DNA from: Coriobacteriaceae bacterium
Lineage (GTDB): Bacteria; Actinomycetota; Coriobacteriia; Anaerosomatales; D1FN1-002
Reading direction: 5' to 3'
DNA length: 53,750 nt
NCBI GenBank assembly: GCA_013824215.1
Contig: PNNM01000001.1
Coordinates: forward strand, 1-53,750
Shown: positions 29,865 through 53,750 of the stretch, in pieces
How positions within the stretch are numbered: the first letter of the stretch is position 1
Layout of the letters: each line of letters starts with the position of its first letter
Made by a program: the position numbers and the translations under genes
The notes under the pieces: generated by a model
Told to the model about the DNA's origin: nothing
Databases searched by the model: none
Seen by the model: the letters and a program-made list of their open reading frames with translations, nothing else

Positions 29865-29886
29865 ATGAGGAGCGGGCAGCCGGTCG

Positions 29887-30435: not shown

Positions 30436-33015
30436 GTGGCTGACGAGATCGCCGAATCCCACGTACTTCCGATAGACATCGAACGCGAGCTGAGGGACTC
30501 GTTCCTCGAGTACTCGATGTCCGTCATCGTCGCGCGCGCCCTCCCGGACGTGCGCGACGGCCTGAAGCCCGTACACCGGCGCATCCTGTACGCCATGAAC
30601 GAGTCGGGGCTGACGCCCGGCCGGCCGCACAAGAAGTCCGCGTGGACCGTCGGAGAGGTCATCGGCAAGTACCACCCGCACGGTGACGCGGCCGTGTACG
30701 ACACGATGGTGCGCATGGCGCAGGACTTCGCGATGCGCGCGCCGCTCGTCGATGGACATGGGAACTTCGGCTCAGTCGACGGTGACCGTCCGGCGGCCAT
30801 GCGCTACACCGAGGCCCGTCTGCACAAGCACGCGGTCGAGCTGCTGCGCGATCTCGACAAGGAGACGGTCGACTTCGGCCCGAACTACGACGAGTCTCTC
30901 TCCGAGCCCAAGGTCCTCCCGGCGCGCTTCCCGAACCTGCTGGTCAACGGCTCGGCGGGCATCGCAGTGGGCATGGCGACCAACATCCCGCCCCACAACA
31001 TGGGCGAGATCATAGACGCCACGACGCTGCTCATCGACAACCCGGAGGCCACGACCGAGGACCTCATCAAGGTCGTGCCGGGTCCGGATTTCCCCACCGG
31101 CGGCATCATCATGGGCCGCGACGGGATCCGCGAGGCGTACGAGACCGGACGCGGCTCGATCAAGATCCGCGGGGTCGCGCACATCGAGCAGACGTCCACC
31201 GGACGCACGCGGATCATCATCACGGAGATCCCGTACCAGGTGAACAAGTCCAAACTCGTCATCAAGATCGCCGACCTGGTGCGCGAGAAGAAGCTCACCG
31301 AGATCTCGGACCTGCGCGACGAGTCGGACCGCAAGGGCATGCGCGTCGTCATCGAACTCAAGCAGACGTGCATCCCCCAGGTCGCGCTGAACAAGCTGTA
31401 CAAGAACACGCCGCTCGAGACCGGCTTCGGCGTGAACATGCTGGCGCTCGTCGACGGCGTCCCGCGAACGCTCGGCATCAAGGACGCGTTGCTCCACTAC
31501 ATCGAGTTCCAGAAGGAAGTCATCACGCGGCGCACCCGCTACGAGCTGCGCAAAGCCGAGGAGCGCGCTCACATCCTCGACGGCTACGTCATCGCGCTGG
31601 ACAACATCGACGAGGTCATCAAGATCATCCGGGGCAGCGCCGACGACGTCGAAGCCAAGGCCAAGCTCATCGAGCGCTTCAGCCTGACCGAGGCACAGAC
31701 CGACGCGATCCTCGAGATGCGCCTGCGCCGCCTGACGGGCCTCGAGCGCCACAAGATCGAGGAGGAGCTCGCCGAGTTGCGCGAGAAGATCGCGCGGTAC
31801 ACCAAGGTCCTCGGCGATATGCAGCTCGTGCTCGACATCATCAAGGAGGAGCTGGCCGAGGTCCGCGCCAAGCACGCGGACAAGCGCCGGACCCAGATCA
31901 CGAGCGCGGCCAAGGACCTCGACGTGGAGGATCTCATCGCCGAGGAGGACATGGTCGTCACCATCACGCGGGCGGGTTATGTCAAACGCCTGCCGGTGGC
32001 CACCTACCGCCAGCAGAAGCGCGGCGGAAAGGGCCTTTCGGGGGTCAACCTGAAAGAGAGCGACTACGTCGAGCACCTCTTCATCAGCTCGACCCACGAC
32101 CACGTGCTCTTCTTCTCGACCAAGGGCAAGGTCTACCGGATGAAGGTGCACGAACTGCCGGTGGGTTCGCGCCACGCGCGCGGCACGGCCGTGGTCAACC
32201 TCCTGCCGTTCGAACAGGACGAGAAGATAGCCGCGGTCATCAACACGCGCGAGTTCGGCGCGGACGACAACCTGCTCTTCGCCACCGAGGGCGGCATGGT
32301 CAAGAAGACGGCGATGCAGGCGTACAGCCGGGTGCTGTCCACCGGGATCATCGCGATCAAGCTGAAGCCGGGCGACCGCCTCGTGTCGGTCCGCCGGGTG
32401 CATGCCGGCCAGAAGGTGATGCTCGTCTCCACCGCGGGCAAGGCCATCCGCTGGGACGAGTCGGAGGCCAGGCCGATGGGGCGCGACACCACCGGGGTCC
32501 AGGGGATGCGCACCAAGGCCGGCGAACGCGTGCTCGGCATGGAGATCGCGCCCGACGCCGCCGAGCTCTTCGTCGTCACCGAACGCGGCTACGGAAAGCG
32601 CACGACGGCGGCCGACTACCCGGAACACCACCGCGGGGGCCAGGGCGTCAAGACGATCCAGGTCACCGAGAAGAAGGGCGAGCTGGCCGGGATGAAGATC
32701 GTCCAGCCCGGCCAGGAGCTCATGCTCATCTCGGAGGCCGGCGTCGTCATCCGCGTGAAAGCCGAGGACATCAGCAAGCTCGGACGTTCCACCCAGGGCG
32801 TGAAGGTGATGAACGTCGGCGACGCCGACCGGGTCTGTGCCATCGCCCGTGTCTCGGCGACCAAGAAGAAGGCGCCGAAGGCGGCTCCCGAGGGCCAGGG
32901 AGTGCTGGTCGAGGAGGAGACGGTCGACGCGCGCGAGTCGGAGGCCGAGGAGCTGGTAGCCGAGGAGTTCGAGGACGCCGAGGACGGTGCGGTGGAGGAG
33001 ACTGATGAGAGCTAG
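30436..33015 (+). CDS. gyrA: DNA gyrase subunit A
   Basis: GTG start. [37 protein letters not shown] (the active-site Tyr region), C-terminal beta-pinwheel repeats and an acidic tail. Confidence 0.97.
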
Positions 33016-37186: not shown

Positions 37187-37690
37187 TCAGTGCCCGGTGA
37201 AGTCGCTCGGGTCGACGTGCTCGAGGAACTCCCGGAAGCGCTCGACCTCCTGCTCCTCGTCGGCTCCGCCCTCATGGGCGACGACAGCCGCCTCGTCCCA
37301 GACCTCCTCGGCCAGCACGATCGGGCAGCCTACGCGCACCGCCAGCGCCATGGAGTCGGACGGCCTCGCGTCGACCACGACTCGGCGCTCCTCGCCGCGG
37401 AGCACGAGCGCCGCGTAGAACGTGCCCTCCTCCAGCCTCGTTATCTCCACGCGCTCGAGGTAGAACCCGAAGGTCTCGAACATGCCGCGCATCAGATCGT
37501 GCGTGAGTGGCCGAGGCGGCTCGGCACCCTGGATGCCGAGCAGGATCGCCATCGCCTCGGCGTGCCCGATCCAGATCGGCAGGACGTCGTCGCCGAGGAA
37601 GTCGCCCGCGTCGTCGACACGGCGCAGGAGGACGACCGGCGAGTTGCTCGCCGAATCCACGCTGAGCGATGCGATGCGGACCGGGATCAC
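37187..37690 (-). CDS. Bifunctional nuclease family protein (DUF151/BFN)
   Basis: PIWIGHAEAMAI...RPLTHDL...RVEITRLEEGTFYA....VDARPSDSMALAVR. GTG 37690 is preceded by GGAGG. The upstream part of the 305-aa track ORF is a low-complexity extension. Confidence 0.75.
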   Translation of the reverse strand: MIPVRIASLSVDSASNSPVVLLRRVDDAGDFLGDDVLPIWIGHAEAMAILLGIQGAEPPRPLTHDLMRGMFETFGFYLERVEITRLEEGTFYAALVLRGEERRVVVDARPSDSMALAVRVGCPIVLAEEVWDEAAVVAHEGGADEEQEVERFREFLEHVDPSDFTGH

Positions 37691-37763
37691 CGACAGACGA
37701 CCTCCGCTCGGGACGCCACTATCATAGGGGATACCCAGATGGCGGCAGCGGTGGACGGAGGCG

Positions 37764-38168
37764 ATGGGGCTCATGCGGACGCTGGACGTGCGGACGAGCG
37801 AGCGCGAGCAGATGCTGGATATCACGCGGGAGGTGGCCGACGCCGTGTCCGCGACAGGCGTGGCCGACGGTGTCGTGGTGGTGTACGTCCCGCACACGAC
37901 CGCGGCGGTCACGATCAACGAGAACGCCGACCCGGACGTCTGCGCCGACGTGCTGTGCGGCCTTCGCGACATCGCCCCGCGCTCCGGGAAGTGGCGGCAC
38001 GGGGAGGGCAACTCGGACGGGCACATCAAGAGCTCGCTCGTGGGCTGTTCCGTCACGATCCCGGTGAGCGGCGGCAGGCTGGTGCTCGGCACGTGGCAGG
38101 GCATCCAGTTCTGCGAGTTCGACGGCCCGAGGAACCGCTGCGTGTACGTGCAGGTGCTCGGCGCCTAG
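37764..38168 (+). CDS. YjbQ/UPF0047 family protein (secondary thiamine-phosphate synthase-like)
   Basis: ITREV...GVVVVYVPHTTAAVTINENADPDV...GNSDGHIKSSLVG.S..IPV..G.L.LGTWQGI.F.EFDGPR. GGAGG lies 4 nt upstream of the ATG. Confidence 0.85.
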   Translation: MGLMRTLDVRTSEREQMLDITREVADAVSATGVADGVVVVYVPHTTAAVTINENADPDVCADVLCGLRDIAPRSGKWRHGEGNSDGHIKSSLVGCSVTIPVSGGRLVLGTWQGIQFCEFDGPRNRCVYVQVLGA

Positions 38169-39588: not shown

Positions 39589-39786
39589 AGTGCGAGACTC
39601 CTCTTCTGCGCGCTCATCGGCGCGCCGTTGCAGACGCAGTGATCCTGCGACCGCAACAAGAGGTGCGAGGACGACCGGGTCTTGGGTGATATGCTCTCGG
39701 GTAGCAGTATACGTGCCGAAGTGCGGAAACGCCAGCGCCGAGGGCGTGTGTCCGCCCCCGGGACGCCTCGACCGAGCGGAGCCGCA

Positions 39787-40068
39787 GTGACCGAGCGCGC
39801 CGTACTCATGCTGTCCGGACTCGCTGTCGCTGCGCTACTCGGCGGGTGCGCGGAGGCGGACCCGCCGGCCTCCACGGGCGCCGAGATCGTCCGGACGAGG
39901 TGTACGCGCTGCCACAGCACGGAGCGGATCAAGGCGGGGGCCGCCCGCGACCGCGCCTACTGGGAGACCACGGTCGACCGGATGCGGGGCAACGGCGCGC
40001 GCATAGACGACGCCCAGCGCGCCACCCTCGTGGAGTTCCTGGCTTCGGGGGGCGCCGCCGGACTGTGA
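39787..40068 (+). CDS. Small monoheme c-type cytochrome lipoprotein (putative)
   Basis: Signal peptide with lipobox LLGGC, a single CTRCH heme-binding motif, and a downstream WETTVDRM that could supply a Met axial ligand. The start is uncertain (GTG 39787 or ATG 39808). Confidence 0.55.
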   Translation: MTERAVLMLSGLAVAALLGGCAEADPPASTGAEIVRTRCTRCHSTERIKAGAARDRAYWETTVDRMRGNGARIDDAQRATLVEFLASGGAAGL

Positions 40069-40091
40069 CGCCCGGCGCGCCGGAGGATCCG

Positions 40092-40901
40092 ATGGAGGGA
40101 GCGAAGATGAGTCGTCACCACGACCGGACCAAGGTCCTGCTCGTCGATGATTCCCAGGCTCTGCGCGAGATAGCGGCGTTCACGCTTGAGCACATGGGCG
40201 AGTACGACGTGGATGTCGCCGAGGACGGCCGCGCGGCACTCGGCCTGCTCGCCGACCGTTTCTACGACGTCATGATCGCGGACTTCTCGATGCCCGGGAT
40301 GAACGGGATCGAACTCACCCGGGTGGCGCGCGCCATGCCGCTGCACGCGGGCATGCCGGTGATACTCATGACCCATGACGAGGACCCCCGCTTGGCGGAC
40401 GCCGCGCAGAAGGCGGGCGTATCGGGCCTGATCGCCAAGCCGCTGCATCCCGAGGCGATGCAGGAGGCCATCGGATCGGCCCTGCGCTCGGCCGGGGCGC
40501 CTGAGACCGCCGTCGCCCCCGAGGACGCCGCTCCGATCGGCATGCAGGCGGTGCTCGACGCGTTGCCGCACCCGGCGATGATCCTGGATGCCGACCACGC
40601 CGTGCTGCTCGGCAACCGGGCGTTCTACCGGGCGACCCGCGCGAGTATCGGGGACTGCGGGCTCAGCTGCGCCGATGTGATGCATCGAGACGGAGCCCCG
40701 GCGGACTGCCCGCTCGTCGAAGCGGCCAGGACCGGGATGTACGTGGAGCGCGCGATCATGGACACGGTCGCCGGACCGATGCTCGTCGGGGTCTACCCGC
40801 TCGAACTCGCCGACGAGCGCGGCAAGCGGCTGTTCCTGCACATCACCAGGCCGCTGACCGGCGGGCTGGCCGGTGCCGGGGTCCCACCCAGCCGGGCCTG
40901 A
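40092..40901 (+). CDS. Response-regulator receiver protein with a C-terminal PAS-like, Cys-rich sensory domain (no DNA-binding output)
   Basis: REC domain: VLLVDDS, the phospho-acceptor context MIADFSMPGMNG, and GLIAKP. C-terminus: AMILDADHAVLLGNRAFY...GDCGLSCADVMHRDGAPADCPLVEA. The alternative start ATG 40107 follows GGAGGGAG. Confidence 0.75.
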   Translation: MEGAKMSRHHDRTKVLLVDDSQALREIAAFTLEHMGEYDVDVAEDGRAALGLLADRFYDVMIADFSMPGMNGIELTRVARAMPLHAGMPVILMTHDEDPRLADAAQKAGVSGLIAKPLHPEAMQEAIGSALRSAGAPETAVAPEDAAPIGMQAVLDALPHPAMILDADHAVLLGNRAFYRATRASIGDCGLSCADVMHRDGAPADCPLVEAARTGMYVERAIMDTVAGPMLVGVYPLELADERGKRLFLHITRPLTGGLAGAGVPPSRA

Positions 40902-41015
40902 GGCACGTCTGCGGGCGGGTTGGTCAAGCGCGCCGCCTCGCGACCCGCTCTGGCGCTGGTCTCGGCCGCTCTGTTAGGGTTCGGCAAGGGGCAGCCACGG
41001 GGGAGGCGCGACGAC

Positions 41016-41243
41016 GTGAACATAGCCGAGGCGGTCAAGGACGTCCTGGAGCCCTACGTCGGCCATATGGTCGCCGATACGTGTGTGCGGGCGACAGCGC
41101 TGTCCATCGGCAAGACCTCCGACACGCTGGACGCCGCCGACCTTCCCCCGCTCGAGAACAACGTCCGCAAGCTCCTGCTGCCCATCGCGCCGAGCTCGAC
41201 CATCGACGCGCTCATCGCGCAGATCGAGAGGAACGTCGCATGA
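41016..41243 (+). CDS. Hypothetical 75-aa protein
   Basis: GTG 41016 lies 9 nt after GGGGGAGG, and the stop overlaps the next gene's start (ATGA). I recognise no family. The track ORF start at 40920 is less well supported. Confidence 0.45.
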   Translation: MNIAEAVKDVLEPYVGHMVADTCVRATALSIGKTSDTLDAADLPPLENNVRKLLLPIAPSSTIDALIAQIERNVA

Positions 41244-42056: not shown

Positions 42057-45000
42057 CTATCCGCCCAGCAGGACGACCCGCACGCGTCTCGTCCCGGCGT
42101 CCCGTTCGAGCGGGACCCTCGGCTCCGGCAGGCGCACGCCGTCGAGTTCCACGTACGCCACGCCCCTGTTCACGCCACGCGGGTTCTCGACCTCGATCTC
42201 GTAGGTCGTCCCGTCGGCCCGGTACCGCATCGAGTATCCGCCCCAGGACTTCGGGATGCAGGGGTCCACGACGAGGTGGCGGTGCTCCTCCTCGGCGATG
42301 ATGTCGAGGCCGAGCAGCCAGCGCACCACCACCCGGTAGAACCACGACGCCGAGCCCGTGTACCAGGTCCAGCCGCCGCGCCCGACGTGTGGTCCGACGG
42401 CGTAGACGTCAGCGGCCACGACGTAGGGCTCGACCTTGTAGACCCCGACGGCCTCAGGCGTGAGCGCGTGGTTGATCGGGTTGATCAGATCGAGCAGGGC
42501 GAGCGCCTCGTCGCCGTCGCCGGTGAGCAGGTAGGCGAGAGCCACCCACACCGCCGCATGCGTGTACTGCCCGCCGTTCTCGCGCACGCCCGGGACGTAG
42601 CCTTTGATGTAGCCGGGATCGTGGGACATCCGGTCGAACGGCGGGGCGAGCAGCATGATGAGGCTGTCGTCCCACCGCACCAGACGCTGCTCCACCGCCT
42701 CGAGGGAGCGCATCGCCCGCTGACGGTCGCCGGAGCCCGAGATCACCGCCCAGGCCTGCGCGATGGCGTCGATGCTGCACTCGTCGGAGGCGCGGGTGCC
42801 CAGCGGGGTGCCGTCGTCGAAGAACGCACGCCGGTACCATGCTCCGTCCCACGCCTCGCGCTCGACCGCCTGCACGAACCGCGCGGCCGTGGCGCGGTAC
42901 GCCGCCGCGCGAGCCGCGTCCCCGCGGCGCTCGCAGACCTCGGCGAAGCTGCGCATCGTCACGTCCAGGAACCACGCGAGCCACACGCTCTCGCCCGATC
43001 CCCCGAGCCCGACCCGGTTCATGCCGTCGTTCCAATCGCCGCCCCCGATGAGCGGGAGGCCGTGCGGCCCCACTCCGAGGCTGGCGTCGAGTGCCGCGCA
43101 GCAGTGCTCGTAGACGGTGCCGGACAACTGGGAGTACCCCGGTTGCACGTAGAGGTCCTCGACGCCCTCGGCCAAAGGCTGCGCGTCGAGGTACGCGGTC
43201 GTCTCGTCCAGCACGCTCAGGTCGCCGGTGGCGCGCACGTACTCGGCGACCACGAACGGCAGCCAGTTGCGGTCGTCGGTGAAGCGCGTGCGGACCCCTC
43301 GGCCGGACTCCGGCTGCCACCAGTGGAGCACGTCCCCCTCGGGGAACTGCCGGCGCGCGCACTCCACGATGTGCGCGCGGACCAGGTCCGGCCGCACATG
43401 GAGCGCCGCCAGCGAGTCCTGCAGCTGGTCGCGGAATCCGAACGCGCCGGACGACTGGTATGTCGCCGTGCGCCCCCAGAGCCGGCACGAGAGCACCTGG
43501 TAGAGCAGCATGCCGTTCACGAGCCGGTCGAGTGCGGCGTCCGGTGTGGCGATCTCCACCGCGTCGAGCACGTCGGCCCAGGCCGCCTTCGCCGAGGCGA
43601 GCGCTTCCTCGACCGCGCCCGCGCGCCGGTACCGCGCCACAAGCTCCCGTGCCTCCGCCAGTTCCGCCGTCTGGCCGAGCATGAACGAGATCTCGGTGCT
43701 CTCGCCGGGTGCGAGATCGACGCGAACCATCAGCGCGCCGCAGTTGTCGTGGAACCGCCCGGTCACGCCGCCCAGGCCCTTGCGTCCCATGGCGGCCGGA
43801 TGCGCCGGGCAGCCGTTGCGGCCGATGAACTCGGTGCGGCTGCCGGTGAAGCCGCACGTCTCCCGGTCGCAGGCCAGGAACGCGGGCCGGCCGGGGAAGT
43901 CCGGGTTGAAGTGGTTGTGCGCGGTGAGGATCCGCGCCTCCGGGTCGTAACACGTCACGACCTGCTGGTTGGCCCTGCTGCGCGAGCTGCCGAGCACCCA
44001 CTCGACCATATGAGTGACGCTCAGCGAGCGGGCGCCGGCCGTGGCGTTGGTCAGTCGCAGCCGGGCGATGCGCACCGGGTCTTGCGGCGGCACGAACCAC
44101 GTGAGCTCCTGGACGATGCCGTGCGAGGTGTGCTCGAAGATCGAGTACCCGCGGCCGTGGCGGGCGACGTAGGTCCCCTCTGCGCGGGCCGGCGCCGGCG
44201 TCGGACTCCAGTACTCGCCGGTCTCCTCGTCGCGGATGTAGGTCGTCTCGCCGGAGCCGTCGGTGACCGGGTCGTTGTTCCAGGTGGTTATCCGGTTCTC
44301 GTGGCTGTTCTCCGCCCAGGTGCAGCCGATCCCGGCCTCGGACACGAGCGTGCCGAAACGCGGACCCGCGATCACGTTGATCCACGGCGCCGGGGTGGTC
44401 TCGCCCTCCGCCAGCCGAGTGACATACTCCCCGCGCGCCACGTCGAAGCCGCCGAAGCCGTTGTCGAACTCGAGGGCCAGCCGTTCCGGGACGGGGGCCG
44501 GCCATCCGCCCGGCTCGGCTCTCGGCACGAGCGGATCCGGGGGCGCGGGCCGCTTGCCGCGCTGGTTGAGCTGGAGCACGATCGGCCCGCCGTCGCCGGT
44601 AAGCGTCGCCCTGGCCACCGAGAGCAGGAGGTTGAGCACGTCCGGGTGCATCTGGTCGGCGCGTCGCAGGAACACACCGCCCGGGCGGTCCTGGAGCTGC
44701 AGCGCGTGGCCGGTCCTGACGAGCAGCCGCAGACGGTCGGCGAGTTCGTCGGCGTAGCCGGTCGGCCGCGTGTTCAGCACCACGAGGTCCGCCACCAGCC
44801 CCCGGTGCCGCCAGTACTGGTGCGCGAGCAGCGCTTGGCGCACGAGCGGTGTCTCCTCGACGCGCTCGATGCGCACGAGCAGGATCGGCAGGTCTCCCGA
44901 GATGCCGAGCGACCACAGCCCGTCCATCTTCAGGCCGTTCTCCACCGCGGTCTTGACCTTCAGCGGCGAGTGCGGGTCGGTCAGCAGCAGCCGCGAGGCG

Positions 45001-48000
45001 AGCCGCTGGAAGGTCACCGCGTCCTCGGCGGAGATGCCGAGGTCCCGCAGTTCCACCTGCCCGGCCGTCCAAGCCAGGTCGGCCGCGCGCTGGGCGCTCC
45101 GGATGTCGCCGTACTTCTCCACGAGCCGGGCGGCCTCGTCGCGCTCCCGCGCCACCCCGGTGGAGAACACGATGCGGGCGGTCGCGCCCGGTCCGACGGA
45201 GAGGGCATGGCGGATCGCGCAGACCGGGTCGAGCACGGCGCCCGAGATCCCCGACAGTTCCGCTGCCGCATCGAGCGCGGCGGGAGCGTGCACGTCGCGA
45301 AGCCGGCCGAGGAAGCGCGCACGATCGGTCTCGTACGACGAGGGGCACTCCCCGTCGGACTCGCACGCCAGCACGTGGAAGCCCCAGGGGCGCGCCTCCT
45401 CGGCGGAGCGCGGGCGGCGCGAGAACAGGAGCGCACGTCGGGGCTCGTCGGCATGGGTCTCGACGAACAGGTTGGAGAAACCCTTGTGTGCCTGGTCGGC
45501 GCCCTGCGGCGCCATCGCCACCTCGAGGTACGAGGTGACCTCCAGCCGGCGTTCCACGCGGGAGTGGTTCGTGAAGGTGATGCGCCTGACCTCGACATCG
45601 TCCTCGGGCGAGACGACCACCTCGTAGTGCGTGTCGATCTCACCGTCGGTGCGCCACCACTCGGCGCGCGCCTCCGAGAAAGTCACATGGTAGTCGTCCG
45701 CCGTCGCGAGCGACGGCTGGTGCGCGGCGGACCAGACACGGTCCTCGTCCACATCGCGGACGAAGAAGAAGGTGCCCCAGCAGTCGCGGGTGATGTCCTC
45801 GCGGTAGCGGGTGACGGCGAGATCCTCCCAGCGCGAATAGCCGCCGCCGGCGTTCGTGACCATGACCGAGTAGCGTCCGTTCGACAGGAAATGCGTCGCC
45901 GGGGTGGGTGTGTCCGCGAGCGGGTAGCTGCGCGCCACCGGAGCGGGCAGCTCGCGCACGGAGCGCACGAAGCGGACCTCCTCCACGTGCGGCGTCGCGA
46001 GCTGGACGTGCCTCGGCACGCGCTCCTGCAAGAGCAGTTCGGCCGAGCGCACCATCGGGTCCGCGTGGAAGCGCATCCGCATGCGATGGCCGGTCAGCTC
46101 GCCCCCCAAGGCCACCATCCCCATGCCGTGGTGGTGCGCGAAGTACGCGCGTACGATCGCGCGTTCCTTGCCGGCCGGCACGCGTCCCGGCGTGTAGTCC
46201 ACGGCCTCGTAGAAGCCGAACCACCCCTCGGCCCCGCGCTTCCTGAGCGCGTCGAGGTTGGCGATCGACGCGGCGCGGTCCACCTGCAGCGCCAGGAGCG
46301 TCGCGTACGGGGCGACGACCACGTCGCCGGACAGACCGCGCTTCAAGCCGAGGCCGGGCACGCCGAACGCCTGGTACTGGTAGGTGAGATCGGCGTCCTT
46401 GGCGTTGAACGCGGACTCTGAGACGCCCCACGGCACGCCGCGTTGGCGTCCGTACTGTATCTGGCGTCTGACCACGGTCCCGTACGTCTCGTCGAGCAGC
46501 GTCTCCCGCCAGGACCGCATGACGAGCAGCGGCATGAGGTACTCGAACATCGAGGCGCTCCACGACACGAGCGCGTTGCCCGCGTCGGTGCGCGTGATGG
46601 GCCGTCCGAGACGGAACCAGTGGTCCTGGGGGACGTCGCCCTTGGCAACGGCGAGGAAGGAGGCCAGACGGCACTCGGAGGCGAGCATGTCGTAGTAGGA
46701 GTTGTCGAGCCGGCCCTCCGAGGTGTTGAAGCCGATCGAGAAGAGCTGGCGGCTGCGGTCGTACAGCATCCTGAAGTCCGTGTGTTCCCACATCTCGCGT
46801 GCGATGTCGACCTCGAGACGGAGCTGCGCGAGCGTCGTGACGCAGGCCGGTCGGGCGTTGTGCACCCCGGCCAGCACGGCCTCGGCCCAGGCCGCCGCCG
46901 CACCGCACGTCTCGGGATCCTCGCCGGGCGGGTCCGTCGCGATGGCGGTGAGCGCGTCGAGCGCGCGGTCGAGGCCCTCGGCGAGGCCGACCAGCGAAGG
47001 TGTGTGCTCGAGCAGCGGGCAGAGGTCCTCGTAGCGGGAGCAGGCGCGCAGGGCCGGCGGCGCGCCGGCGAGAAGGGGCACCCACGGCGCCAGCGTCTCG
47101 ACGTCGCGCAGCGGCGAGCGCACCGCTTCGAGCAGCGCCGAGCAGGAGGCGCGCGCCCGCTCCACCGGCGTGGCCGGCGCGGGACCGTCCGTCTCGGGCG
47201 CGTCGCCGAGTTCGGCGAGGCGGAGCGGGATCTCCTCGGCCAAGGTGGCGAGCGAGTTGAGCAGCGCCAGCCACTCCCCTAGATTGGCCGGGGTCACCTC
47301 GAGCGAGACCCGCCGCCGCAGCCCGTCGATCTCGTCGCGGAGCCCCTCGATCGCCTCTTTGGCGTCGGAGGCGTCGCGGGCCGCGACCAGGTCCTCGAGC
47401 GCCAGCAACGCCGTGTCCGCCAGGCCGTCGAGCAGCTGGGGTCCCAGCAGCGGCGACTCGGACGCCTCCAGCAGGGCCACGCGGAGTACGAGCAGGTGCC
47501 CGGCGAGGTTGCCCGAGTCCACGGTGGACACGTAGCCCGGGCGGAGCGGCTGGAGCGTGCGGGTGTCGTACCAGTTGTAGAAGTGCCCGCGGAAGCGCTC
47601 CATGCCGGCGAGCGTGGAGACGGTGCGCGAGACACGTTCGAGCAGGTCCACGCAGGTCGTGTAGCCGAGGTCGTACGCGGTGAGGTATGCGAGCAGCTGG
47701 ATGCCGACGTTGGTGGGGGACGTGCGGTGCGCCACCTCGCCCTTCGGCTCCTCCTGGTAGTTGTCGGGAGTCAGCCAGTGGTCCTCGGCTCCCGGGAAGG
47801 TGTCGAAGAAGCGCCAGGCTCGCCGCGCGGTGCGTCTCATGAACGTGCGCTCGGCCTCGGTCGGCTCGGGAACGCTCCGGTCGATCGGGCGGGAGATGCG
47901 CCAGGCGACGTACGGCGAGACGAGCCACACCGCCGCGAAAGGCAGCACGGTGAGCAGGCGCTCGGGTCCGGCGAGCAGGGCGGGTGCGGTGAGCGCCGCC

Positions 48001-50885
48001 GCGACCGCCGCCGCCGGCCACATCCGCGCCATGAACCCGCCGAGGTCCGAGCCGAGCCTGTGCTCCGCGTCGGCGGCGGTCTCCCATTCCAGCAGGCCCC
48101 GGCGGGTGACGGTCATGCGCCACAGCGCCCTGATGATCGCGTCGAGCATGAGGTGCGCCTGGTGCGGCAGCATCGTCAGCGAGAGGAACGCGCGGGCCGA
48201 GTCGCGGCCGAAGTCCTTCCAGGCGGTGTGGAACGACGAGCTGAAGCTCACCGTCTGGGGGCGGAACAGCATCGAGTCGGCGAGCGAGAAGTAGGCCGGG
48301 AACAGCAGCACGGTGAGCAGCATGATGTCCCACTGCCATGCGCTCCCGGGCAGGAGGTACCAGCCGGCGAACGCGAGCAGGAGCGTGGCGGGTGCGAACA
48401 GCGAGCGCCTCAGGTTGTCGAGGATCTTCCACCGGTGCAGCAGCGACAGTGGGTTCGGCTCGCTCCCGCCGTTGTCCAGCGGCACCCGGAGCGCCAGCCA
48501 CGGCAGGGTCTGCCAGTCACCGCGGACCCAGCGGTGCACGCGCGCGCATTGCGGGGCGTAGCTGGACGGGTGCTCGTCGAAGACCTCCACGTCCGAGACC
48601 AGGGCCGTGCGCAGGTAGCAGCCCTCGAGAAGGTCGTGAGAGAGCAGGGAGTCGTGCGGGACGCGTCCCTCGAGCGCGGCGATGAACACGTCCACCTCGA
48701 AGATGCCCTTGCCGGTGAACGAGCCCTCGCCGAAGACGTCCTGGTACGTGTCGGAGACGGCACCCGCGTACGGGTCGATGCCGGTGACGCCGGAGTAGAG
48801 CCAGGCGAAGAAGGAGCGGCCGGCAGCCGGCAGCGACATGCCGACGCGCGGCTGCACGAGGGCGTAGCCATCCGTGACCCGGCGCAGGTCGGCGTCGTAG
48901 ACCGCGCGGTTCAGCGGGTGGGCGATCGTGGAGACGAGCTTGGCGGCGCCGTCGCGCGGAAGGATGGTGTCGGCGTCGAGCGTGGCGACGAAGGTGACGT
49001 CGGCCAGAGGGCCCCGCTCGCCTGCGACGTGCGCGAACGACGTGTCCGTGGCGCCGCGCAGGTAACGCGCCAGCTCGGTGAGCGCGCCGCGCTTGCGCTC
49101 CCAGCCCATCCAGGTCTGCTCGCTCTCGCAGAACCTGCGCTCGCGGACGAAGGCGAGGAACGGACGCCGCCCGTGCTCCGCCTCGTACCGCGTGTTGAGC
49201 TCGTCGACCCCCTTGAGCGCCGCCTCCACGATCGCCGGGTCGCCGGGCGCGTGCGCGGCGTCCGCGGCTTTGAGGTCGCCGAGCACACCGAATCGCAGGT
49301 TCGGGTCGGGGTTGGCCAGGTACGTGCGTTCGAGGTTCTCGAGCACGGCCGAGGTGGCCTTCACCGACGACAGGAGCGCGGGGACCACGACGAGCGTGGC
49401 GTGCGCGTCGGAGATCGGGCGGCGGTAGTCGAGCTTGGGGAAGACACGCGGCGGCCAGAGCATCGCCGCGAAGCGGTTGGCGATGTTGATGCCGAGATCG
49501 CTCATCGGGACGACGCCCAGGAGCAGGAGCAGCGCGACCGCCCATGCCGGCAGCCCCATCGCGATCGCGTACCACCCGAGCGAGAGGACGAGCGCGACGG
49601 TCACCGTTCCGAGCCCGCCCCAGTAGATGAGGCCCCGGTGCGAGAGCGGGCCTCGGTAGAGGCGCTCACGCAGCCGCGGCCGGTACCCGATGCTCTCTTC
49701 GAACACGTAGCGCCCGCGGCTGATCAGGTAGTGTCCGACGTGTCCGCGCACGAGGTCCGAGGGATCGCGCGAGATCGCTTCCAGCGACCAGCTCACCGCC
49801 GCCTCGGCCACCTCCACCTCCGAGAACTCGCACCGCTTCGCCAGCTCCTCGAGGCCATGGCGGAGACGGTCCCGGCTGCGGAAGTCCATCCGGTGGTAGA
49901 CGTCCGCCGGGTCCTGTCTCAAGACGTGCTCCACGATGCAGGTGCGCTCGAAGAACGAACGCCAGTCGAGCGCTTCGAGCAGCCGGATGCTCGTGATCGA
50001 GTTGGCCACGGACACCTGGTTCGCCGCCTGCTCCTGCTGTTCGGCGTGGACGGCCAGTTCGAAGGAGGTCCCCGCGGAGGTGACGCGTCCCTCGAGCCAC
50101 TCATTGATGTCGGCGGTGACGGCCTCCTTGCCCTGGAGCCGCTGGGCGAGACGGCGGAAGAACGCGGCCTCGGCGCCCGGGTGCTCGGTGTCCAGACGCG
50201 ACAGCAGTCCGGCGACCTGGTCCGGGGCCTCCTGCGCGGAGGTGAGCAGGCGGTCGGCCCAGTCGTCGGCGGCGTACTCGTCGAGCTGGGCCCGGACGAC
50301 ACGGTCGGCGATGCGCCGCACGTTCTCGATCAGCGCGACGCGCAGCATGATCGGCACGGCCCAGACCTCGCCGATGGACAGCGGCGAGGAGTCCTGGAAA
50401 CCCATCACGAATCGGAGCAGGAACTCCTCGTCGAGGCGCGCGTCCGTGTGCGACACGAGCGCCACCGCGGCCCCGTACACCCGGGGGTTGCCGGCCAGCT
50501 CACCCGAGGTCAGCCGCGGCAGCTCGAGGCCGTAGTCGGCAGGAAGGTCCTCGCGCACCGTGCGGACCTGGCCCTCGAGCAGATAGTAGTTGTCGAGCAG
50601 CCATTCGCTGGCCGGCGAGACGGCGCGCTGGGCTTGGGCGGAGACTGCGAGGATCGAGTTGCACCACGCCAGATGAGTCGCCGCGCTCTGCACCATGTCG
50701 AGCAGAGGCGTGGTCCGCGCGTGTCCGCCGGTCGTCCAGACCTGCGCGGCCGCGAGCTCTGCCGCGCGCTCCGCCGCGCGCTCCGCGGTCAGCAGTTCTC
50801 CGCGGAACGGCGGGTCGGCCTGCGCGGGCCGAGGTGTGCGAGTCTCGTCCGAGGTCCCCATACGCTTCGTGAGACGTCCCCCCAT
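42057..50885 (-). CDS. cgs: Cyclic beta-1,2-glucan synthase (Cgs/NdvB/ChvB-type: N-terminal cytoplasmic region, TM helices, GT84 glycosyltransferase, cyclization region, C-terminal GH94 phosphorylase-like domain)
   Basis: N-terminus: EWLLDNYYLLEGQ, PRVYGAAVALVSHTD, IGEVWAVPIMLRVALIENVRR. GT84: WMGWERKRGAL, ATLDADTILPRDGA, AHPLNRAVYD, LVQPRV, FTGKGIFEVDVF, LLSHDLLEGCY, RVHRWVRGDWQ. Central region: SPTNVGIQLL, HFYNWYDTRTLQPL, VSTVDSGNLAGHL, SWSASMFEYLMP, GVPWGVSESAFN, FGVPGLGLKRGL. GH94: NGFGGF, PAPWINV, FGFRDQLQD, LHWWQPESGRGVRTR, GGGDWNDGMN, ENGGQYTHAA. The start is uncertain (ATG 50945, 50927, 50885 or 50861). Confidence 0.9.
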   Translation of the reverse strand: MGGRLTKRMGTSDETRTPRPAQADPPFRGELLTAERAAERAAELAAAQVWTTGGHARTTPLLDMVQSAATHLAWCNSILAVSAQAQRAVSPASEWLLDNYYLLEGQVRTVREDLPADYGLELPRLTSGELAGNPRVYGAAVALVSHTDARLDEEFLLRFVMGFQDSSPLSIGEVWAVPIMLRVALIENVRRIADRVVRAQLDEYAADDWADRLLTSAQEAPDQVAGLLSRLDTEHPGAEAAFFRRLAQRLQGKEAVTADINEWLEGRVTSAGTSFELAVHAEQQEQAANQVSVANSITSIRLLEALDWRSFFERTCIVEHVLRQDPADVYHRMDFRSRDRLRHGLEELAKRCEFSEVEVAEAAVSWSLEAISRDPSDLVRGHVGHYLISRGRYVFEESIGYRPRLRERLYRGPLSHRGLIYWGGLGTVTVALVLSLGWYAIAMGLPAWAVALLLLLGVVPMSDLGINIANRFAAMLWPPRVFPKLDYRRPISDAHATLVVVPALLSSVKATSAVLENLERTYLANPDPNLRFGVLGDLKAADAAHAPGDPAIVEAALKGVDELNTRYEAEHGRRPFLAFVRERRFCESEQTWMGWERKRGALTELARYLRGATDTSFAHVAGERGPLADVTFVATLDADTILPRDGAAKLVSTIAHPLNRAVYDADLRRVTDGYALVQPRVGMSLPAAGRSFFAWLYSGVTGIDPYAGAVSDTYQDVFGEGSFTGKGIFEVDVFIAALEGRVPHDSLLSHDLLEGCYLRTALVSDVEVFDEHPSSYAPQCARVHRWVRGDWQTLPWLALRVPLDNGGSEPNPLSLLHRWKILDNLRRSLFAPATLLLAFAGWYLLPGSAWQWDIMLLTVLLFPAYFSLADSMLFRPQTVSFSSSFHTAWKDFGRDSARAFLSLTMLPHQAHLMLDAIIRALWRMTVTRRGLLEWETAADAEHRLGSDLGGFMARMWPAAAVAAALTAPALLAGPERLLTVLPFAAVWLVSPYVAWRISRPIDRSVPEPTEAERTFMRRTARRAWRFFDTFPGAEDHWLTPDNYQEEPKGEVAHRTSPTNVGIQLLAYLTAYDLGYTTCVDLLERVSRTVSTLAGMERFRGHFYNWYDTRTLQPLRPGYVSTVDSGNLAGHLLVLRVALLEASESPLLGPQLLDGLADTALLALEDLVAARDASDAKEAIEGLRDEIDGLRRRVSLEVTPANLGEWLALLNSLATLAEEIPLRLAELGDAPETDGPAPATPVERARASCSALLEAVRSPLRDVETLAPWVPLLAGAPPALRACSRYEDLCPLLEHTPSLVGLAEGLDRALDALTAIATDPPGEDPETCGAAAAWAEAVLAGVHNARPACVTTLAQLRLEVDIAREMWEHTDFRMLYDRSRQLFSIGFNTSEGRLDNSYYDMLASECRLASFLAVAKGDVPQDHWFRLGRPITRTDAGNALVSWSASMFEYLMPLLVMRSWRETLLDETYGTVVRRQIQYGRQRGVPWGVSESAFNAKDADLTYQYQAFGVPGLGLKRGLSGDVVVAPYATLLALQVDRAASIANLDALRKRGAEGWFGFYEAVDYTPGRVPAGKERAIVRAYFAHHHGMGMVALGGELTGHRMRMRFHADPMVRSAELLLQERVPRHVQLATPHVEEVRFVRSVRELPAPVARSYPLADTPTPATHFLSNGRYSVMVTNAGGGYSRWEDLAVTRYREDITRDCWGTFFFVRDVDEDRVWSAAHQPSLATADDYHVTFSEARAEWWRTDGEIDTHYEVVVSPEDDVEVRRITFTNHSRVERRLEVTSYLEVAMAPQGADQAHKGFSNLFVETHADEPRRALLFSRRPRSAEEARPWGFHVLACESDGECPSSYETDRARFLGRLRDVHAPAALDAAAELSGISGAVLDPVCAIRHALSVGPGATARIVFSTGVARERDEAARLVEKYGDIRSAQRAADLAWTAGQVELRDLGISAEDAVTFQRLASRLLLTDPHSPLKVKTAVENGLKMDGLWSLGISGDLPILLVRIERVEETPLVRQALLAHQYWRHRGLVADLVVLNTRPTGYADELADRLRLLVRTGHALQLQDRPGGVFLRRADQMHPDVLNLLLSVARATLTGDGGPIVLQLNQRGKRPAPPDPLVPRAEPGGWPAPVPERLALEFDNGFGGFDVARGEYVTRLAEGETTPAPWINVIAGPRFGTLVSEAGIGCTWAENSHENRITTWNNDPVTDGSGETTYIRDEETGEYWSPTPAPARAEGTYVARHGRGYSIFEHTSHGIVQELTWFVPPQDPVRIARLRLTNATAGARSLSVTHMVEWVLGSSRSRANQQVVTCYDPEARILTAHNHFNPDFPGRPAFLACDRETCGFTGSRTEFIGRNGCPAHPAAMGRKGLGGVTGRFHDNCGALMVRVDLAPGESTEISFMLGQTAELAEARELVARYRRAGAVEEALASAKAAWADVLDAVEIATPDAALDRLVNGMLLYQVLSCRLWGRTATYQSSGAFGFRDQLQDSLAALHVRPDLVRAHIVECARRQFPEGDVLHWWQPESGRGVRTRFTDDRNWLPFVVAEYVRATGDLSVLDETTAYLDAQPLAEGVEDLYVQPGYSQLSGTVYEHCCAALDASLGVGPHGLPLIGGGDWNDGMNRVGLGGSGESVWLAWFLDVTMRSFAEVCERRGDAARAAAYRATAARFVQAVEREAWDGAWYRRAFFDDGTPLGTRASDECSIDAIAQAWAVISGSGDRQRAMRSLEAVEQRLVRWDDSLIMLLAPPFDRMSHDPGYIKGYVPGVRENGGQYTHAAVWVALAYLLTGDGDEALALLDLINPINHALTPEAVGVYKVEPYVVAADVYAVGPHVGRGGWTWYTGSASWFYRVVVRWLLGLDIIAEEEHRHLVVDPCIPKSWGGYSMRYRADGTTYEIEVENPRGVNRGVAYVELDGVRLPEPRVPLERDAGTRRVRVVLLGG

Positions 50886-51026
50886 TCCTTGGTTCCCTGT
50901 GCGACGGTCGGCGCGAAGTTCGCTCATGTGCGGGGCAGGGAACATTCTCGCACGTCCGGGTTTGGTGGCGTCGGGATACCCGGCGGGGTATACTTGGAGC
51001 GGCACAGTCTCTCGATCGGAGATGGC

Positions 51027-51731
51027 ATGGCGGGCAGGAAGTGGCTGATCTGGGGTGCGGTGGCGGTGGCCGTCGCCGGGCTGGCATACGTGGTCAGCAG
51101 GCCGTCGGCTCCGGCGGCGGGCGACGTCGATGCCTCGGCGTTCGCGGGTCTCGTCGCGGACGGGGTGCGCGTCATCGACGTGCGCACCGCCGGAGAGTAC
51201 GAGGGCGGGCACATCCCCGGTGCGGAGAACGTGCCGGTCGACACGGTCCCGCAGACGTCGCAGTCGTGGGACAAGACGCAGCCGATAGCGGTCTACTGTC
51301 AGACCGGCGCCCGTTCGGCCAACGCGATGTCCTACCTCACCGGGCAGGGTTTCGCCACCGTGTACAACCTGCGCGGCGGCATCGTGGAGTGGAGCGGGGA
51401 ACTCACCCGGGGCTCGGCGGCCGGGACAGCCGCCGGTGCCGTGAAGATCGCGACCAACGGCACCCCGGTCCTGATCGACTTCTCCGGCAGCGCTTGACCC
51501 ACCTGCATCGAGATGAAGCCTGTGGTCGACAGGTTGGAGCAGGAGTTCAAGGGCAAGGTCGAGTTCAGGGTCTACGTGGACGACTCAGGCCCCGACAACC
51601 TAGCCGGCACGCTCGGCGTCCAGTACGTGCCCACCTATGTCTTTGTGAACACGGACGGTTCGATCGCCCAGCAGGTCGTCGGCGGTATGGCCGAGGAGGA
51701 CATGCGCAAGGCGCTCGAGGCCCTGAACTAG
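51027..51731 (+). CDS. Signal-anchored rhodanese / thioredoxin-fold fusion; predicted selenoprotein with Sec at TGA 51495-51497 (UPTC redox motif)
   Basis: N-terminal anchor MAGRKWLIWGAVAVAVAGLAYVV. Rhodanese motifs VIDVRTAGEYEGGHIPGAENVP and the active-site loop YCQTGARS. TGA 51495 is in frame with ORF 51513..51731. Read-through gives PVLIDFSGSA-U-PTC-IEMKPVVDRLEQEFKGKVEFRVYVDD...QYVPTYVFVNTDGS, a complete Trx fold with the cis-Pro in register. If TGA is a true stop, the products are 51027..51497 (rhodanese) and an orphan fragment. Confidence 0.6.
51502..51543 (+). promoter_or_regulatory. SECIS-like stem-loop immediately downstream of the candidate Sec codon
   Basis: Lower stem CCTGC (51502-06) / GCAGG (51539-43). 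Upper stem AGCCTGT (51517-23) / ACAGGTT (51529-35), with one G-U pair. Apical loop GGTCG (51524-28). The first loop G is 26 nt after the UGA. Confidence 0.45.
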
Positions 51732-52110
51732 GAGTCGACGGGGTATGTACTGAAGCGAGGCGCTGCGCAGGTGCGCGGCTCTCGAGCACACAGAGAAGTC
51801 CGACACGGCGACGCAGCGAAGAGGTGGACGCTATAGAAGTGGAGCAGCCGAGTCGAGGAGGTTTTCGGGCCGGGGCGTCAGATAAGGACCCTTCGGGCTG
51901 GCCGCATTCTCTCGGGAGCTGGTCACTAGGTTCGCGAGAAACGTGAGCGTTCTCTAGGCCGCCGAAGGGATTCCGGGCATAAGCCCGACTGACTTCAGAG
52001 GCTGAGGCCGAGAGGCCGACAAAGGTCACTTGGCCGACAGGTCCTCGAGGATGGCCCTTTGGAGGGGCGAGTCGCGCGAAGCGAAGGTCGCCTCGGCCCA
52101 CACTCGAAGC

Positions 52111-52154
52111 ACCACGACGCGCCTCCCGATCACTGACGGGAGGCGCGTCGTGGT
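52111..52154. terminator. Perfect 18-bp-stem hairpin downstream of glnK (likely amt-glnK terminator, possibly bidirectional)
   Basis: ACCACGACGCGCCTCCCG (52111-28) / CGGGAGGCGCGTCGTGGT (52137-54), with the 8-nt loop ATCACTGA. It lies 17 nt from the glnK stop. There is no clear U-tract on either strand. Confidence 0.55.
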
Positions 52155-52171
52155 TCTCGAACCACCAGGAT

Positions 52172-52513
<342 letters not shown>

Positions 52514-53750
52514 CTATACCTCCTTCGCGGCCAGCCGGCCCGCGTGCGCGGGGCCGACGGGGAGTTCGTCCAGCGAGCCCTCGCCCAGAGGGCCGGAGCC
52601 CACGAAGTCCGGATAGGCGAGCACGCCAATCTCGGCGGGATCGAGGCCCGCGAGCTCGTCCTCGGCGGACGAGCGTAGCCCCATGAGCGCCTTCTGGACC
52701 GTGAAGAAGACGTAGTGCGTGCCGAACGCCCAGGCGAAGACGACGCCCACCGCGACGAACTGCGCGGCGAGCTGGCTCGCGTTACCGTAGAAGAGGCCGG
52801 TGACCGCGCCCTCCACACCGTTCCAGCCGGCGCCGTACGTCCCGTCGGCGAAGAGGCCGAGGGCGATCATGCCCCACGCGCCGTTGACGCCGTGGACCGA
52901 GACCGCACCCACGGGGTCGTCGACTTTGAGCCTGCGTTCGAGGAAGACGACCGAGCCCACGACGATGACGCCGGCGATGGCGCCGATGACGACCGCGGCC
53001 CACGGGGGGACGAACGCGCACGGCGCGGTGATCGCCACGAGGCCGGCGAGCATGCCGTTGACGGCCATCGACGGGTCGGGCTTGCCCCACAGCCGCCAGA
53101 CGAGCAGCATCGCGGTGACACATCCCGCGGCGCCCGCGAGCATGGTGTTGGCGATGATGATCGCAAAGCGCAGGTCGGTGGCGGCCAGCGTGCTCATGCC
53201 GTTGAAACCGAACCACCCGAACACCAGGATGATCGTGCCGAGGATGGCCATCGGGATGTTGTGGCCGGGCAGGGCCACGGGCGTGCCGTCGGCCTTGAAC
53301 TTGCCGATGCGTGGACCGAGCACGATGGCGCCGGCCAGCGCGGCGAACCCACCGACGGCGTGGACCACCGACGAGCCGGCGAAGTCCACCGCACCGTTGC
53401 CGAGCCCGAAGTTCGCGCCGAGCGTGGCGAGCCAGCCGCCGCCCCAGATCCACATGCCGTAGATCGGGTAGGCGATCGCCCCCATGAACACGCCGAACGG
53501 CACGAACGACGAGAACTTCCAGCGCTCGGCCATGGCGCCGGTCACGATCGTGGCCGCGGTGTCCATGAACACGAGTTGGAACAGGAAGAACGCGAAGACG
53601 CCGGGGTCGTACGTGCCGTCGCCGAGCGACCCGACGAAGAAGCCCTTGGTGCCCGCTATCGCCTGGCCGGCGAGCTGGACGGCCGGGGCGGTGAGGATCC
53701 CCTCGGAGCCGGGAGCCCAGTAGAACGCGCCGAGCGACCCGAACTGCAGG
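52514..53750 (-). CDS. amt: Ammonium transporter Amt (5' end outside the window)
   Basis: The frame stays open to the window edge (LQFGSLGAFYWAPG... upstream of the track ORF). Motifs: FQLVFMDTAATIVTGAMAER, AVDFAGSSVVH, GWFGFNG, GVHGVNGAWG. Confidence 0.93.
   Translation of the reverse strand, partial: LQFGSLGAFYWAPGSEGILTAPAVQLAGQAIAGTKGFFVGSLGDGTYDPGVFAFFLFQLVFMDTAATIVTGAMAERWKFSSFVPFGVFMGAIAYPIYGMWIWGGGWLATLGANFGLGNGAVDFAGSSVVHAVGGFAALAGAIVLGPRIGKFKADGTPVALPGHNIPMAILGTIILVFGWFGFNGMSTLAATDLRFAIIIANTMLAGAAGCVTAMLLVWRLWGKPDPSMAVNGMLAGLVAITAPCAFVPPWAAVVIGAIAGVIVVGSVVFLERRLKVDDPVGAVSVHGVNGAWGMIALGLFADGTYGAGWNGVEGAVTGLFYGNASQLAAQFVAVGVVFAWAFGTHYVFFTVQKALMGLRSSAEDELAGLDPAEIGVLAYPDFVGSGPLGEGSLDELPVGPAHAGRLAAKEV

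Follow-up and report, generated by a model that had tools for sequence, protein, structure and literature searches.

Does a rhodanese gene that appears to end immediately before the redox motif of a thioredoxin fold really end there? We ask this of a locus at positions 51,027 to 51,731 of contig PNNM01000001.1 (assembly GCA_013824215.1, Coriobacteriaceae bacterium), whose whole 53,750-nucleotide stretch was analysed and is called the window below. Public annotation presents the locus as separate pieces, a 'rhodanese' open reading frame (ORF) and a 72-residue thioredoxin fragment, and the corresponding NCBI protein (P0001) is a 274-residue hypothetical protein ending at the TGA at 51495-51497. 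An original prediction, made from the letters alone, had instead read this TGA as a selenocysteine (Sec) codon that supplies the first residue of the CxxC motif in a rhodanese-thioredoxin fusion anchored in the membrane; homologues with Cys, the occurrence of TGA in 21 of 21 related sequences, profile alignments and a covarying hairpin now support that reading. We consider it very likely that UGA 51495-51497 is recoded by means of a hairpin at 51517-51535, most likely to Sec, within a single exported selenoprotein of 234 residues (about 24 kDa).

The interrupted reading frame encodes two complete domains

Read from ATG 51027, the frame encodes MAGRKWLIWGAVAVAVAGLAYVV..., passes through the rhodanese loop YCQTGARS and reaches TGA 51495-51497, beyond which it is open without a further stop as far as TAG 51729-51731 (Table 1). 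The downstream ORF (51513-51731) lies in the identical frame and begins 15 nt past the TGA, and the read-through peptide came out exactly as first quoted. As had also been claimed, nothing like a Shine-Dalgarno sequence can be read ahead of ATG 51513. Because ATG 51027 is preceded by a GGAG Shine-Dalgarno sequence and matches the start position of orthologues, it is likely the real start, that of the 274-residue NCBI model having been placed too far upstream. When followed back beyond the real start, the frame is open for 1,333 codons (47496-51497, + strand) and runs antisense to the neighbouring GH94 gene, a product of high GC. A promoter and terminator scan of 50600-52200 found nothing. Elsewhere in the window TGA is an ordinary stop, as stated originally for yidC and the gene at 5049-5717 and as found here for these and for dnaA, gidB and parB; the genetic code is therefore standard, and a reassigned code was rejected.

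We computed Pfam domain scores of the read-through protein with Cys put in at the TGA. The first half matches the rhodanese family PF00581 and carries its catalytic Cys in a six-residue CxxxxR loop (C91-Q-T-G-A-R96), with C91, G94, R96 and S97 invariant across 35 orthologues. The second half scores above the cutoff of the thioredoxin family PF00085 over a domain that spans the TGA; the redox motif lies where helix 1 begins, and a cis-Pro loop is present. In phmmer alignments to thioredoxins of the PDB (4ba7, 2ynx; E ~2e-10), the TGA codon is aligned with the leading Cys of WCGPC, and VPT with the cis-Pro motif IPT. Two parts of the original prediction, that the TGA sits at the thioredoxin redox Cys and that read-through completes a thioredoxin, are thereby borne out. 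A third, a ResA/TlpA-like role, is not: the thioredoxin half resembles classical thioredoxins more closely than TlpA/ResA/DsbE, and the relevant models stay far below their cutoffs (ResA NF002854, 26.8 vs 170 bits; DsbE TIGR00385, 20.5 vs 123; Redoxin, 18.1 vs 26.6).

At the N-terminus a positively charged stretch precedes some 18 hydrophobic residues, and in 12 of 96 orthologues, in a Cys-containing orthologue from the same clade (P0264, described below) and in Bacteroidota forms, a lipoprotein lipobox takes the place of this signal anchor. Because of the positive-inside N-terminus and of the lipobox signal peptides in orthologues and Cys homologues, both domains are predicted to lie outside the cytoplasmic membrane, as first proposed. 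An AF2 (AlphaFold2) model of a Cys homologue (P0097; predicted local distance difference test score, pLDDT, 90.3) contains both folds joined by a short linker. Foldseek matches in the PDB cover the separate domains only, none spanning rhodanese and thioredoxin, and there is thus no solved structure of such a fusion.

The TGA and the coding frame beyond it are conserved across an actinobacterial clade

With the read-through protein as query we obtained 96 close matches, 93 of which stop at the same point just before the redox motif (...EFYTDW, ...EFSSST, ...DFSGSA); among the best 120 matches, no entry from the clade that carries the TGA (hereafter Sec-type) extends beyond that codon. We then compared the underlying DNA in 21 distinct sequences of uncultured Actinomycetota/Coriobacteriia from NCBI, ENA, JGI and Logan assemblies. 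Besides the genome of the window (locus tags C0418_), carriers of the gene include GCA_037445995.1, GCA_964592805.1, GCA_040961035.1, GCA_054606675.1, GCA_964533555.1, GCA_964633595.1, ERZ25039527 and ERZ25039602. All 21 have TGA at the aligned codon, followed by P-x-C (A for P in one) with the Cys codon always TGC, and all 21 continue in frame through the thioredoxin remainder, 76-80 codons in all past the TGA, to a final stop, which is TAG or TAA, never TGA, in all 19 orthologues in which it was examined.

The sequence beyond the TGA has diverged to a mean pairwise amino-acid identity of 50%, with divergences of 0.38/0.32/0.48 at the three codon positions, the third being the most variable. 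Directly after the TGA, the Pro codon takes any of four synonymous forms (CCC/CCT/CCG/CCA); the ATG used as an internal start in annotation reads CTG at one locus (L088) and ATT at another (L090). The kept frame, the greater divergence at third positions, the synonymous changes of the Pro codon and the loss of the internal ATG at two loci together show that the downstream part is under coding selection. Nor do the homologues behave as pairs of independent genes, TGA, frame and spacing being fixed throughout and the P-x-C conserved; TGA and hairpin are kept together among sequences that are 34-78% identical.

The missing halves turned up when the 77 downstream residues were compared with 1.84 billion cluster representatives (50% identity): among the 150 matches listed, 49 are orphan fragments of at most 80 residues, 42 of them starting with Met. 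The mis-split genes have their other halves in these orphan thioredoxin fragments (69-80 residues). The 'rhodanese' and thioredoxin-fragment entries, to judge from their sequences, almost certainly represent one gene in which TGA encodes Sec at the thioredoxin active site.

We also scanned the window and 17 loci for TGA-interrupted genes by GC content at third codon positions (GC3). The scan was noisy at 61-70% GC and gave no other convincing case; it recovered the selenoprotein gene in all loci with a complete copy except L001. One further in-frame TGA (40899-40901, + strand) separates a response-regulator ORF (39705-40898) from a 113-codon ORF (40902-41243) without a Pfam match; both have GC3 values like those of coding sequence (0.82 and 0.88), and these two are probably adjacent genes.

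Full-length homologues carry Cys at the position of the TGA

Comparative work classically identifies a selenoprotein by the pairing of Sec with Cys at aligned positions of homologous proteins, and here the in-frame UGA aligns with Cys in full-length homologues from two sources. The first is Bacteroidota: a scan of species-representative genomes gave about 75 full-length rhodanese-thioredoxin fusions (carriers include Dyadobacter, Flavobacterium, Sediminibacterium and Chitinophagaceae), all with TGC or TGT (WCxPC) at the aligned codon, and the Cys-type fusion family as a whole numbers 3,656 proteins at E<=1e-10. These proteins (for example P0097 and those of Flavobacterium cauense, L022, and Sediminibacterium goheungense, L067) share the architecture of the Sec form, with a signal or lipoprotein peptide, a rhodanese with its active Cys and a thioredoxin with WCxPC, and are 29-36% identical to it over the matched part, up to full length; unlike the Sec form, they have a TGC or TGT codon, no hairpin after it and different neighbours. 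The family has no characterised function, its members being annotated as 'thioredoxin domain-containing' or 'rhodanese-related sulfurtransferase', and the neighbourhoods of two of them (recF/murB; LysM/fmt/NamZ) offered no functional clue.

The second source is the clade itself. The orthologue P0264 (230 residues; L171 1369-2061) reads ...YEFYTDWCPGCTEMKPIVEKL... and has TGT at the Sec position. In YEFYTDWCPGC, the flank ahead of this Cys matches the commonest one of the Sec type, YEFYTDW-U, without a difference. P0264 has the lipobox SMAGC and lies next to a BFN_dom nuclease gene of the kind found at 37190-38164 of the window, not next to the GH94 gene. It shows that Sec and Cys have been exchanged within the lineage, whichever way the change went.

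Two further Cys-type proteins were observed in passing. One, on a contig labelled 'uncultured Bifidobacterium sp.' (CAZGVO010000003.1, L045), has a 25-residue redox segment equal to that of a Bacteroidia fusion (L044) and nearly equal to that of a Bacteroidetes one (L049), which suggests a mis-binned or mislabelled metagenome-assembled genome. The other (P0261, 514 residues) fuses a CcdA/DsbD-like transmembrane domain to two thioredoxin domains (EFYSGDCPICERMAPV...). Its thioredoxin domains are among the nearest Cys relatives of that of the selenoprotein, and it may hint at how exported thioredoxin domains of this type are re-reduced.

A covarying hairpin follows the TGA

Beyond the TGA the window contains a hairpin of the selenocysteine insertion sequence (SECIS) type, starting 21 nt and with its loop 26 nt after the UGA, with a minimum free energy (MFE) of -8.2 kcal/mol and z = -3.0. 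RNAalifold recovers exactly this helix over the 21 sequences. All 126 cells of the 6-bp stem (126/126) are standard pairs, with compensatory changes at two positions, from U-A to C-G in 6 sequences and from G-C to C-G in 3, and no shuffle or register shift comes near the observed values of pairing and covariation. The compensatory changes are not silent, since P-V-V-D-R becomes P-V-V-D-G, P-L-V-E-G or P-L-V-Q-R; because changes in the stem force amino-acid changes in this way, the protein sequence is seen to give way so that the RNA stays paired. Of the 21 loops, 19 read GGUCG and one reads GGUCC, while the last is a GUU triloop; GGUC is thus present in 20 of 21.

Published criteria for bacterial SECIS elements specify a loop of 3-9 nt, an upper stem of 4-16 bp, at least one G in the first two loop positions, a UGA-to-loop distance of 16-37 nt and an MFE of at most -7.5 kcal/mol (PMC13188914). 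The hairpins described here agree with all of these (loop 5 nt, stem 6-7 bp, GG, 26 nt, -8.2 to -12.8 kcal/mol), and a covarying candidate stands where the original prediction proposed to look for a SECIS element. As a control, equivalent positions in 80 Cys-type genes gave a mean of 2.3 of 6 pairs and none with 6, while P0264, at 64% GC, has 3 of 6. Because it is absent from the 80 Cys-type genes and from this GC-rich orthologue, the hairpin tracks the TGA, not the protein family or base composition.

Like the SECIS element of Escherichia coli fdhF, whose sequence we verified in 5,419 E. coli genomes, the hairpin lies within the ORF just past the UGA and has the loop GGUC; it differs in that its loop lies farther from the UGA, its stem is unrelated in sequence and no bulged U is evident. 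Recognition of the hairpin by SelB is predicted here. A possible lower stem (Table 1) is paired in 67% of cells in the 21 sequences, and we do not rely on it as an established element. An Rfam E-value scan of 51400-51800 returned sub-threshold chance matches only.

Weighing Sec against other readings of the UGA

Several observations weigh against decoding as Sec. The 53.75-kb window, which is the whole contig, holds no selA, selB, selD or tRNA-Sec (ARAGORN, Rfam, and Pfam on 20 ORFs), its sole tRNA being tRNA-Ile (ARAGORN, Rfam); gene tables list no Sec-machinery genes in the ~20-kb flanks of homologous loci, and ARAGORN found tRNA-Ala only, and no tRNA-Sec, in 13 of these loci. As to the hairpin, the P-V-V-D-R residues are partly what the stem and loop encode, so that some of its conservation is coding constraint; its loop is farther from the UGA than in fdhF (26 vs 18 nt); and the hairpin alone reaches only -8.2 kcal/mol, in a 91-nt context whose fold is ordinary (z = -0.5). 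Finally, none of the conserved neighbours points to sulfur metabolism, and we infer both the catalytic mechanism and the reductant in their entirety.

The rival that survives best has the UGA translated, but not as Sec: SECIS-aided recoding to Cys through a selC* tRNA(Cys) and a SelB paralogue, or read-through by near-cognate tRNA(Cys) or tRNA(Trp). In 20 of the 21 sequences the UGA is followed by C, which makes a leaky stop context. Near-cognate read-through would nevertheless have no need of a conserved SelB-type hairpin, and for Cys a plain TGC or TGT would suffice, as in P0264 and the Bacteroidota fusions, yet TGA and hairpin have been kept together across widely diverged sequences. Systems in which a selC* tRNA(Cys) bears the anticodon UCA and is served by a SelB* have indeed been described, but the reports cover Firmicutes, Thermodesulfobacteria, Nitrospirae and Proteobacteria and none is from Actinomycetota (PMC7609411). 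We therefore regard translation as an amino acid other than Sec as unlikely.

Less likely still is a true stop, which would leave a 156-residue anchored rhodanese with a dangling beta-strand and a separate or untranslated 72-residue thioredoxin remnant, that is, a split gene or pseudogene. Every public annotation has it so, with the 93 truncated matches, the 49 orphan fragments among the 150 listed, 42 with an initial Met, and the ATG that stands 15 nt past the TGA in most loci all on its side. A pseudogene, however, would not hold frame, spacing and an ORF of 76-80 codons in 21 of 21 divergent sequences. Translation from the ATG fares no better, as the P-x-C between TGA and ATG is conserved with synonymous change, the ATG is gone in L088 and L090, no Shine-Dalgarno sequence stands ahead of it, and the resulting fragment would be without the nucleophilic redox residue; the covarying hairpin would be left without explanation. 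A fault of sequencing or assembly, or a nonsense mutation that turned TGC or TGT into TGA in one strain, is a thought prompted by the origin of the window in a metagenome-assembled genome. We rejected it as next to impossible: 21 distinct sequences share the TGA, and their assemblies (NCBI, ENA, JGI and Logan) are independent and were produced by differing technologies, which effectively refutes it.

A proposed route from decoding to catalysis

For the preferred reading, Sec at the thioredoxin redox position, we propose the following sequence of events, in which the decoding steps draw on the conserved anatomy of the gene and the function on known rhodanese-thioredoxin chemistry. Translation would begin at ATG 51027; at UGA 51495 the in-ORF hairpin, with its loop GGUCG, would recruit SelB and Sec-tRNA(Sec), Sec would be inserted, and the ribosome would continue to TAG 51729. 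Outside the membrane, Cys91 of the rhodanese domain may accept sulfane sulfur, or possibly selenium, from thiosulfate or polysulfide to form a persulfide, which the selenolate of Sec157 would attack; Cys160 would then resolve the intermediate to an Se-S bond (a selenenylsulfide), with release of sulfide. The fusion would in this way act as a built-in thiosulfate/persulfide:thioredoxin sulfurtransferase, re-reduced by a membrane reductant that may be CcdA/DsbD-like. Precedent for such a partnership comes from the E. coli rhodanese GlpE, with which thioredoxin interacts (Ray et al. 2000, as cited in PMC2593051), and from human TSTD1, which interacts with thioredoxin and hands sulfane sulfur from thiosulfate on to it (Libiad et al. 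2018, as cited in PMC11957799).

Genomic neighbourhood

The selenoprotein gene is flanked on one side by a divergent gene for a giant protein of ~2,750-3,050 residues with Glycoamylase, GH94 beta-supersandwich and Glyco_hydro_94 domains, resembling cyclic beta-1,2-glucan synthases, and this arrangement recurs in almost every locus (Pfam domains at L001, L002, L165, L166, L167 and L170). At one ENA contig (L169 884-9841, - strand) the giant gene is split into at least six ORFs next to an intact selenoprotein gene, the result either of assembly frameshifts or of gene decay. The best NCBIfam match of the rhodanese half, NF045521 (rhoda_near_glyco), lies below its cutoff (55.9 vs 145 bits); its name, taken purely as a name, suggests a glycosyl-enzyme neighbourhood that echoes the GH94 gene. 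On the other side, P-II and Amt genes follow in an arrangement common to most Sec-type loci, and the other loci have in addition a tRNA-Ala(TGC) between these genes, which the window lacks.

The original prediction had further suggested a link to the maturation of c-type cytochromes, which the neighbourhood fails to support: the neighbours are GH94, P-II and Amt genes, with no ccs, ccm or ccdA, and the only cytochrome-c-like gene among the 20 window ORFs scanned (7206-8621) lies 43 kb away. Farther off, the window, at 70% GC, spans the gene cluster of the chromosomal replication origin (17560-33015), with parB, parA, gidB and yidC on the - strand, followed by dnaA (23316-24839), dnaN and recF. 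A TAG is all that divides dnaN from recF, which share a frame, an ordinary gene junction, and two large ORFs at 27834-33015 we take, without having scanned them, to be gyrB/gyrA.

A wider reading, which we put forward tentatively and think doubtful as a whole, is that of an uncatalogued selenoprotein family forming a cell-surface sulfur/selenium relay from a rhodanese to the selenothioredoxin fused to it, known to date from an uncultured Coriobacteriia-like Actinomycetota clade alone, with the GH94 pairing reflecting functional coupling. Were it true, that pairing would go beyond mere synteny, for example to redox or sulfane control of envelope glucan synthesis, and Sec would be fixed in a Coriobacteriia-like clade for which nearly every public entry found ends at the UGA.

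Table 1. Positions of the predicted selenoprotein gene, its elements and its neighbours (window coordinates unless a locus is named)
Feature	Position	Strand	Description	Basis
Complete selenoprotein gene (predicted)	51027..51731	+	234 codons including Sec157, then TAG	Translation, Pfam domains, same layout at 21 homologous loci
Shine-Dalgarno sequence GGAG	51018..51021	+	5 nt 5' of ATG 51027	Sequence reading
N-terminal hydrophobic segment	51042..51095	+	Residues 6-23 (WLIWGAVAVAVAGLAYVV) after MAGRK; putative signal anchor, N-in/C-out	Topology predicted
Rhodanese domain	51159..51398	+	Residues 45-124	Pfam PF00581, E=3e-20, 72.9 bits vs cutoff 22.2
Rhodanese catalytic Cys91	51297..51299	+	TGT; loop C-Q-T-G-A-R	Sequence
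Thioredoxin domain	51447..51719	+	Residues 141-231, spans the TGA	Pfam PF00085, E=7e-11, 42.5 bits vs cutoff 23.5
In-frame UGA	51495..51497	+	Predicted Sec157 codon, first position of the U-P-T-C redox motif	
Possible lower SECIS stem	51502..51543	+	51502-51506 with 51539-51543; weakly conserved	Window fold -16.7 kcal/mol
Cys160	51504..51506	+	TGC; predicted resolving Cys of UxxC	TGC in 21/21 sequences
SECIS-type hairpin	51517..51535	+	A-GCCUGU-GGUCG-ACAGGU-U; stem 51518-51523 / 51529-51534, apical loop 51524-51528	
Thioredoxin cis-Pro, Pro202	51630..51632	+	CCC; VPT	Aligned to IPT of solved thioredoxins; invariant in alignment A1
True stop (predicted)	51729..51731	+	TAG	Translation
Giant GH94/glycoamylase-domain protein gene	42057..50850	-	About 2,900-3,050 residues; divergent from selenoprotein gene; start approximate	ORF list
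Giant GH94 gene in other loci	L001 1011-9260; L002 1058-9823; L165 1049-9772; L166 956-9586; L167 909-9755; L170 1074-9836			
P-II (GlnB/K)	52172-52510	-	Directly downstream of selenoprotein gene, opposite strand	
Ammonium transporter (Amt)	52514-53572	-	Downstream, opposite strand	
472-residue ORF	7206-8621	-	NrfA-like multihaem; weak match	Cytochrom_C552, E=1e-5

Comparison with known selenoproteins and rhodanese-thioredoxin systems

The locus is very likely a genuine selenoprotein gene, and it probably represents a new family within the well-known class of thioredoxin-fold UxxC proteins. Thioredoxin-fold UxxC selenoproteins with an in-ORF SECIS element are the commonest kind in bacteria (PMC9312934, PMC13188914), and a rhodanese fusion with a Sec-containing thioredoxin is in principle unsurprising; the selenoprotein catalogues of 2022 and 2026 nevertheless hold no such fusion with Sec in the thioredoxin motif (PMC9312934, PMC13188914). 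Searches of the literature on Sec in Coriobacteriia/OPB41 and on earlier descriptions of rhodanese-thioredoxin fusions gave nothing of use. No model of NCBIfam release 20 reaches its cutoff (TIGR01068 thioredoxin, 40 bits vs 96.8). With the thioredoxin PF00085 UxxC, PF13098 UxxC and thiol-disulfide isomerase-like selenoproteins, the protein shares the fold, the use of Sec for the N-terminal nucleophilic Cys of CxxC, an in-ORF SECIS-type element a few tens of nucleotides downstream and Cys homologues in other taxa. Unlike them, it is predicted to carry its thioredoxin as the C-terminal half of a fusion with rhodanese, behind an export signal.

Rhodanese domains do occur in catalogued selenoproteins, in five 'forms' that include TsoB (NF045694, rhodanese/DsbD fusion-like), which also pairs rhodanese with a thioredoxin-like/DsbD module. 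In these forms Sec is always in the rhodanese part (UxxS, UxxG, CxU, UxxxxU), whereas here the rhodanese Cys91 is encoded by TGT and Sec would lie in the thioredoxin motif. The protein is no TsoB by score (NF045694, 26.8-29.8 bits vs cutoff 805) and is also below cutoff for NF041203 (rhodanese_LYCAU, 36.5 vs 115 bits).

The bacterial selenoproteome thus gains a well-supported architecture, exported rhodanese plus Sec-thioredoxin, and Sec use is extended to an uncultured Actinomycetota lineage. In databases, the halves of one selenoprotein would be spread over no fewer than 93 clusters of 'rhodanese-like' proteins (clustered at 90% identity) and some 49 of 'thioredoxin' fragments of 69-80 residues; these should be joined, with U at the junction. 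Orthologues with Sec and with Cys form a natural pair for asking what advantage Sec has over Cys in persulfide and thiosulfate chemistry; the stem changes that cost amino-acid changes are a clean case of RNA structure constraining protein sequence; and the set of hairpins is a ready test set for SelB-SECIS recognition beyond Proteobacteria and Firmicutes.

The closest functional parallels are GlpE with thioredoxin, periplasmic PspE, and TSTD1 with thioredoxin. All are single-domain rhodaneses with the six-residue, persulfide-forming CxxxxR loop; GlpE and TSTD1 have thioredoxin as a reported partner, and PspE demonstrates that such rhodaneses work outside the cytoplasm. The rhodanese described here is below cutoff for both the GlpE (49 vs 102 bits) and the PspE model (34 vs 102 bits). 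Unlike all three systems, donor and acceptor are here predicted to be covalently fused, membrane- or lipid-anchored and equipped with Sec as the acceptor nucleophile, a design that would physically join a persulfide-forming Cys to a selenolate.

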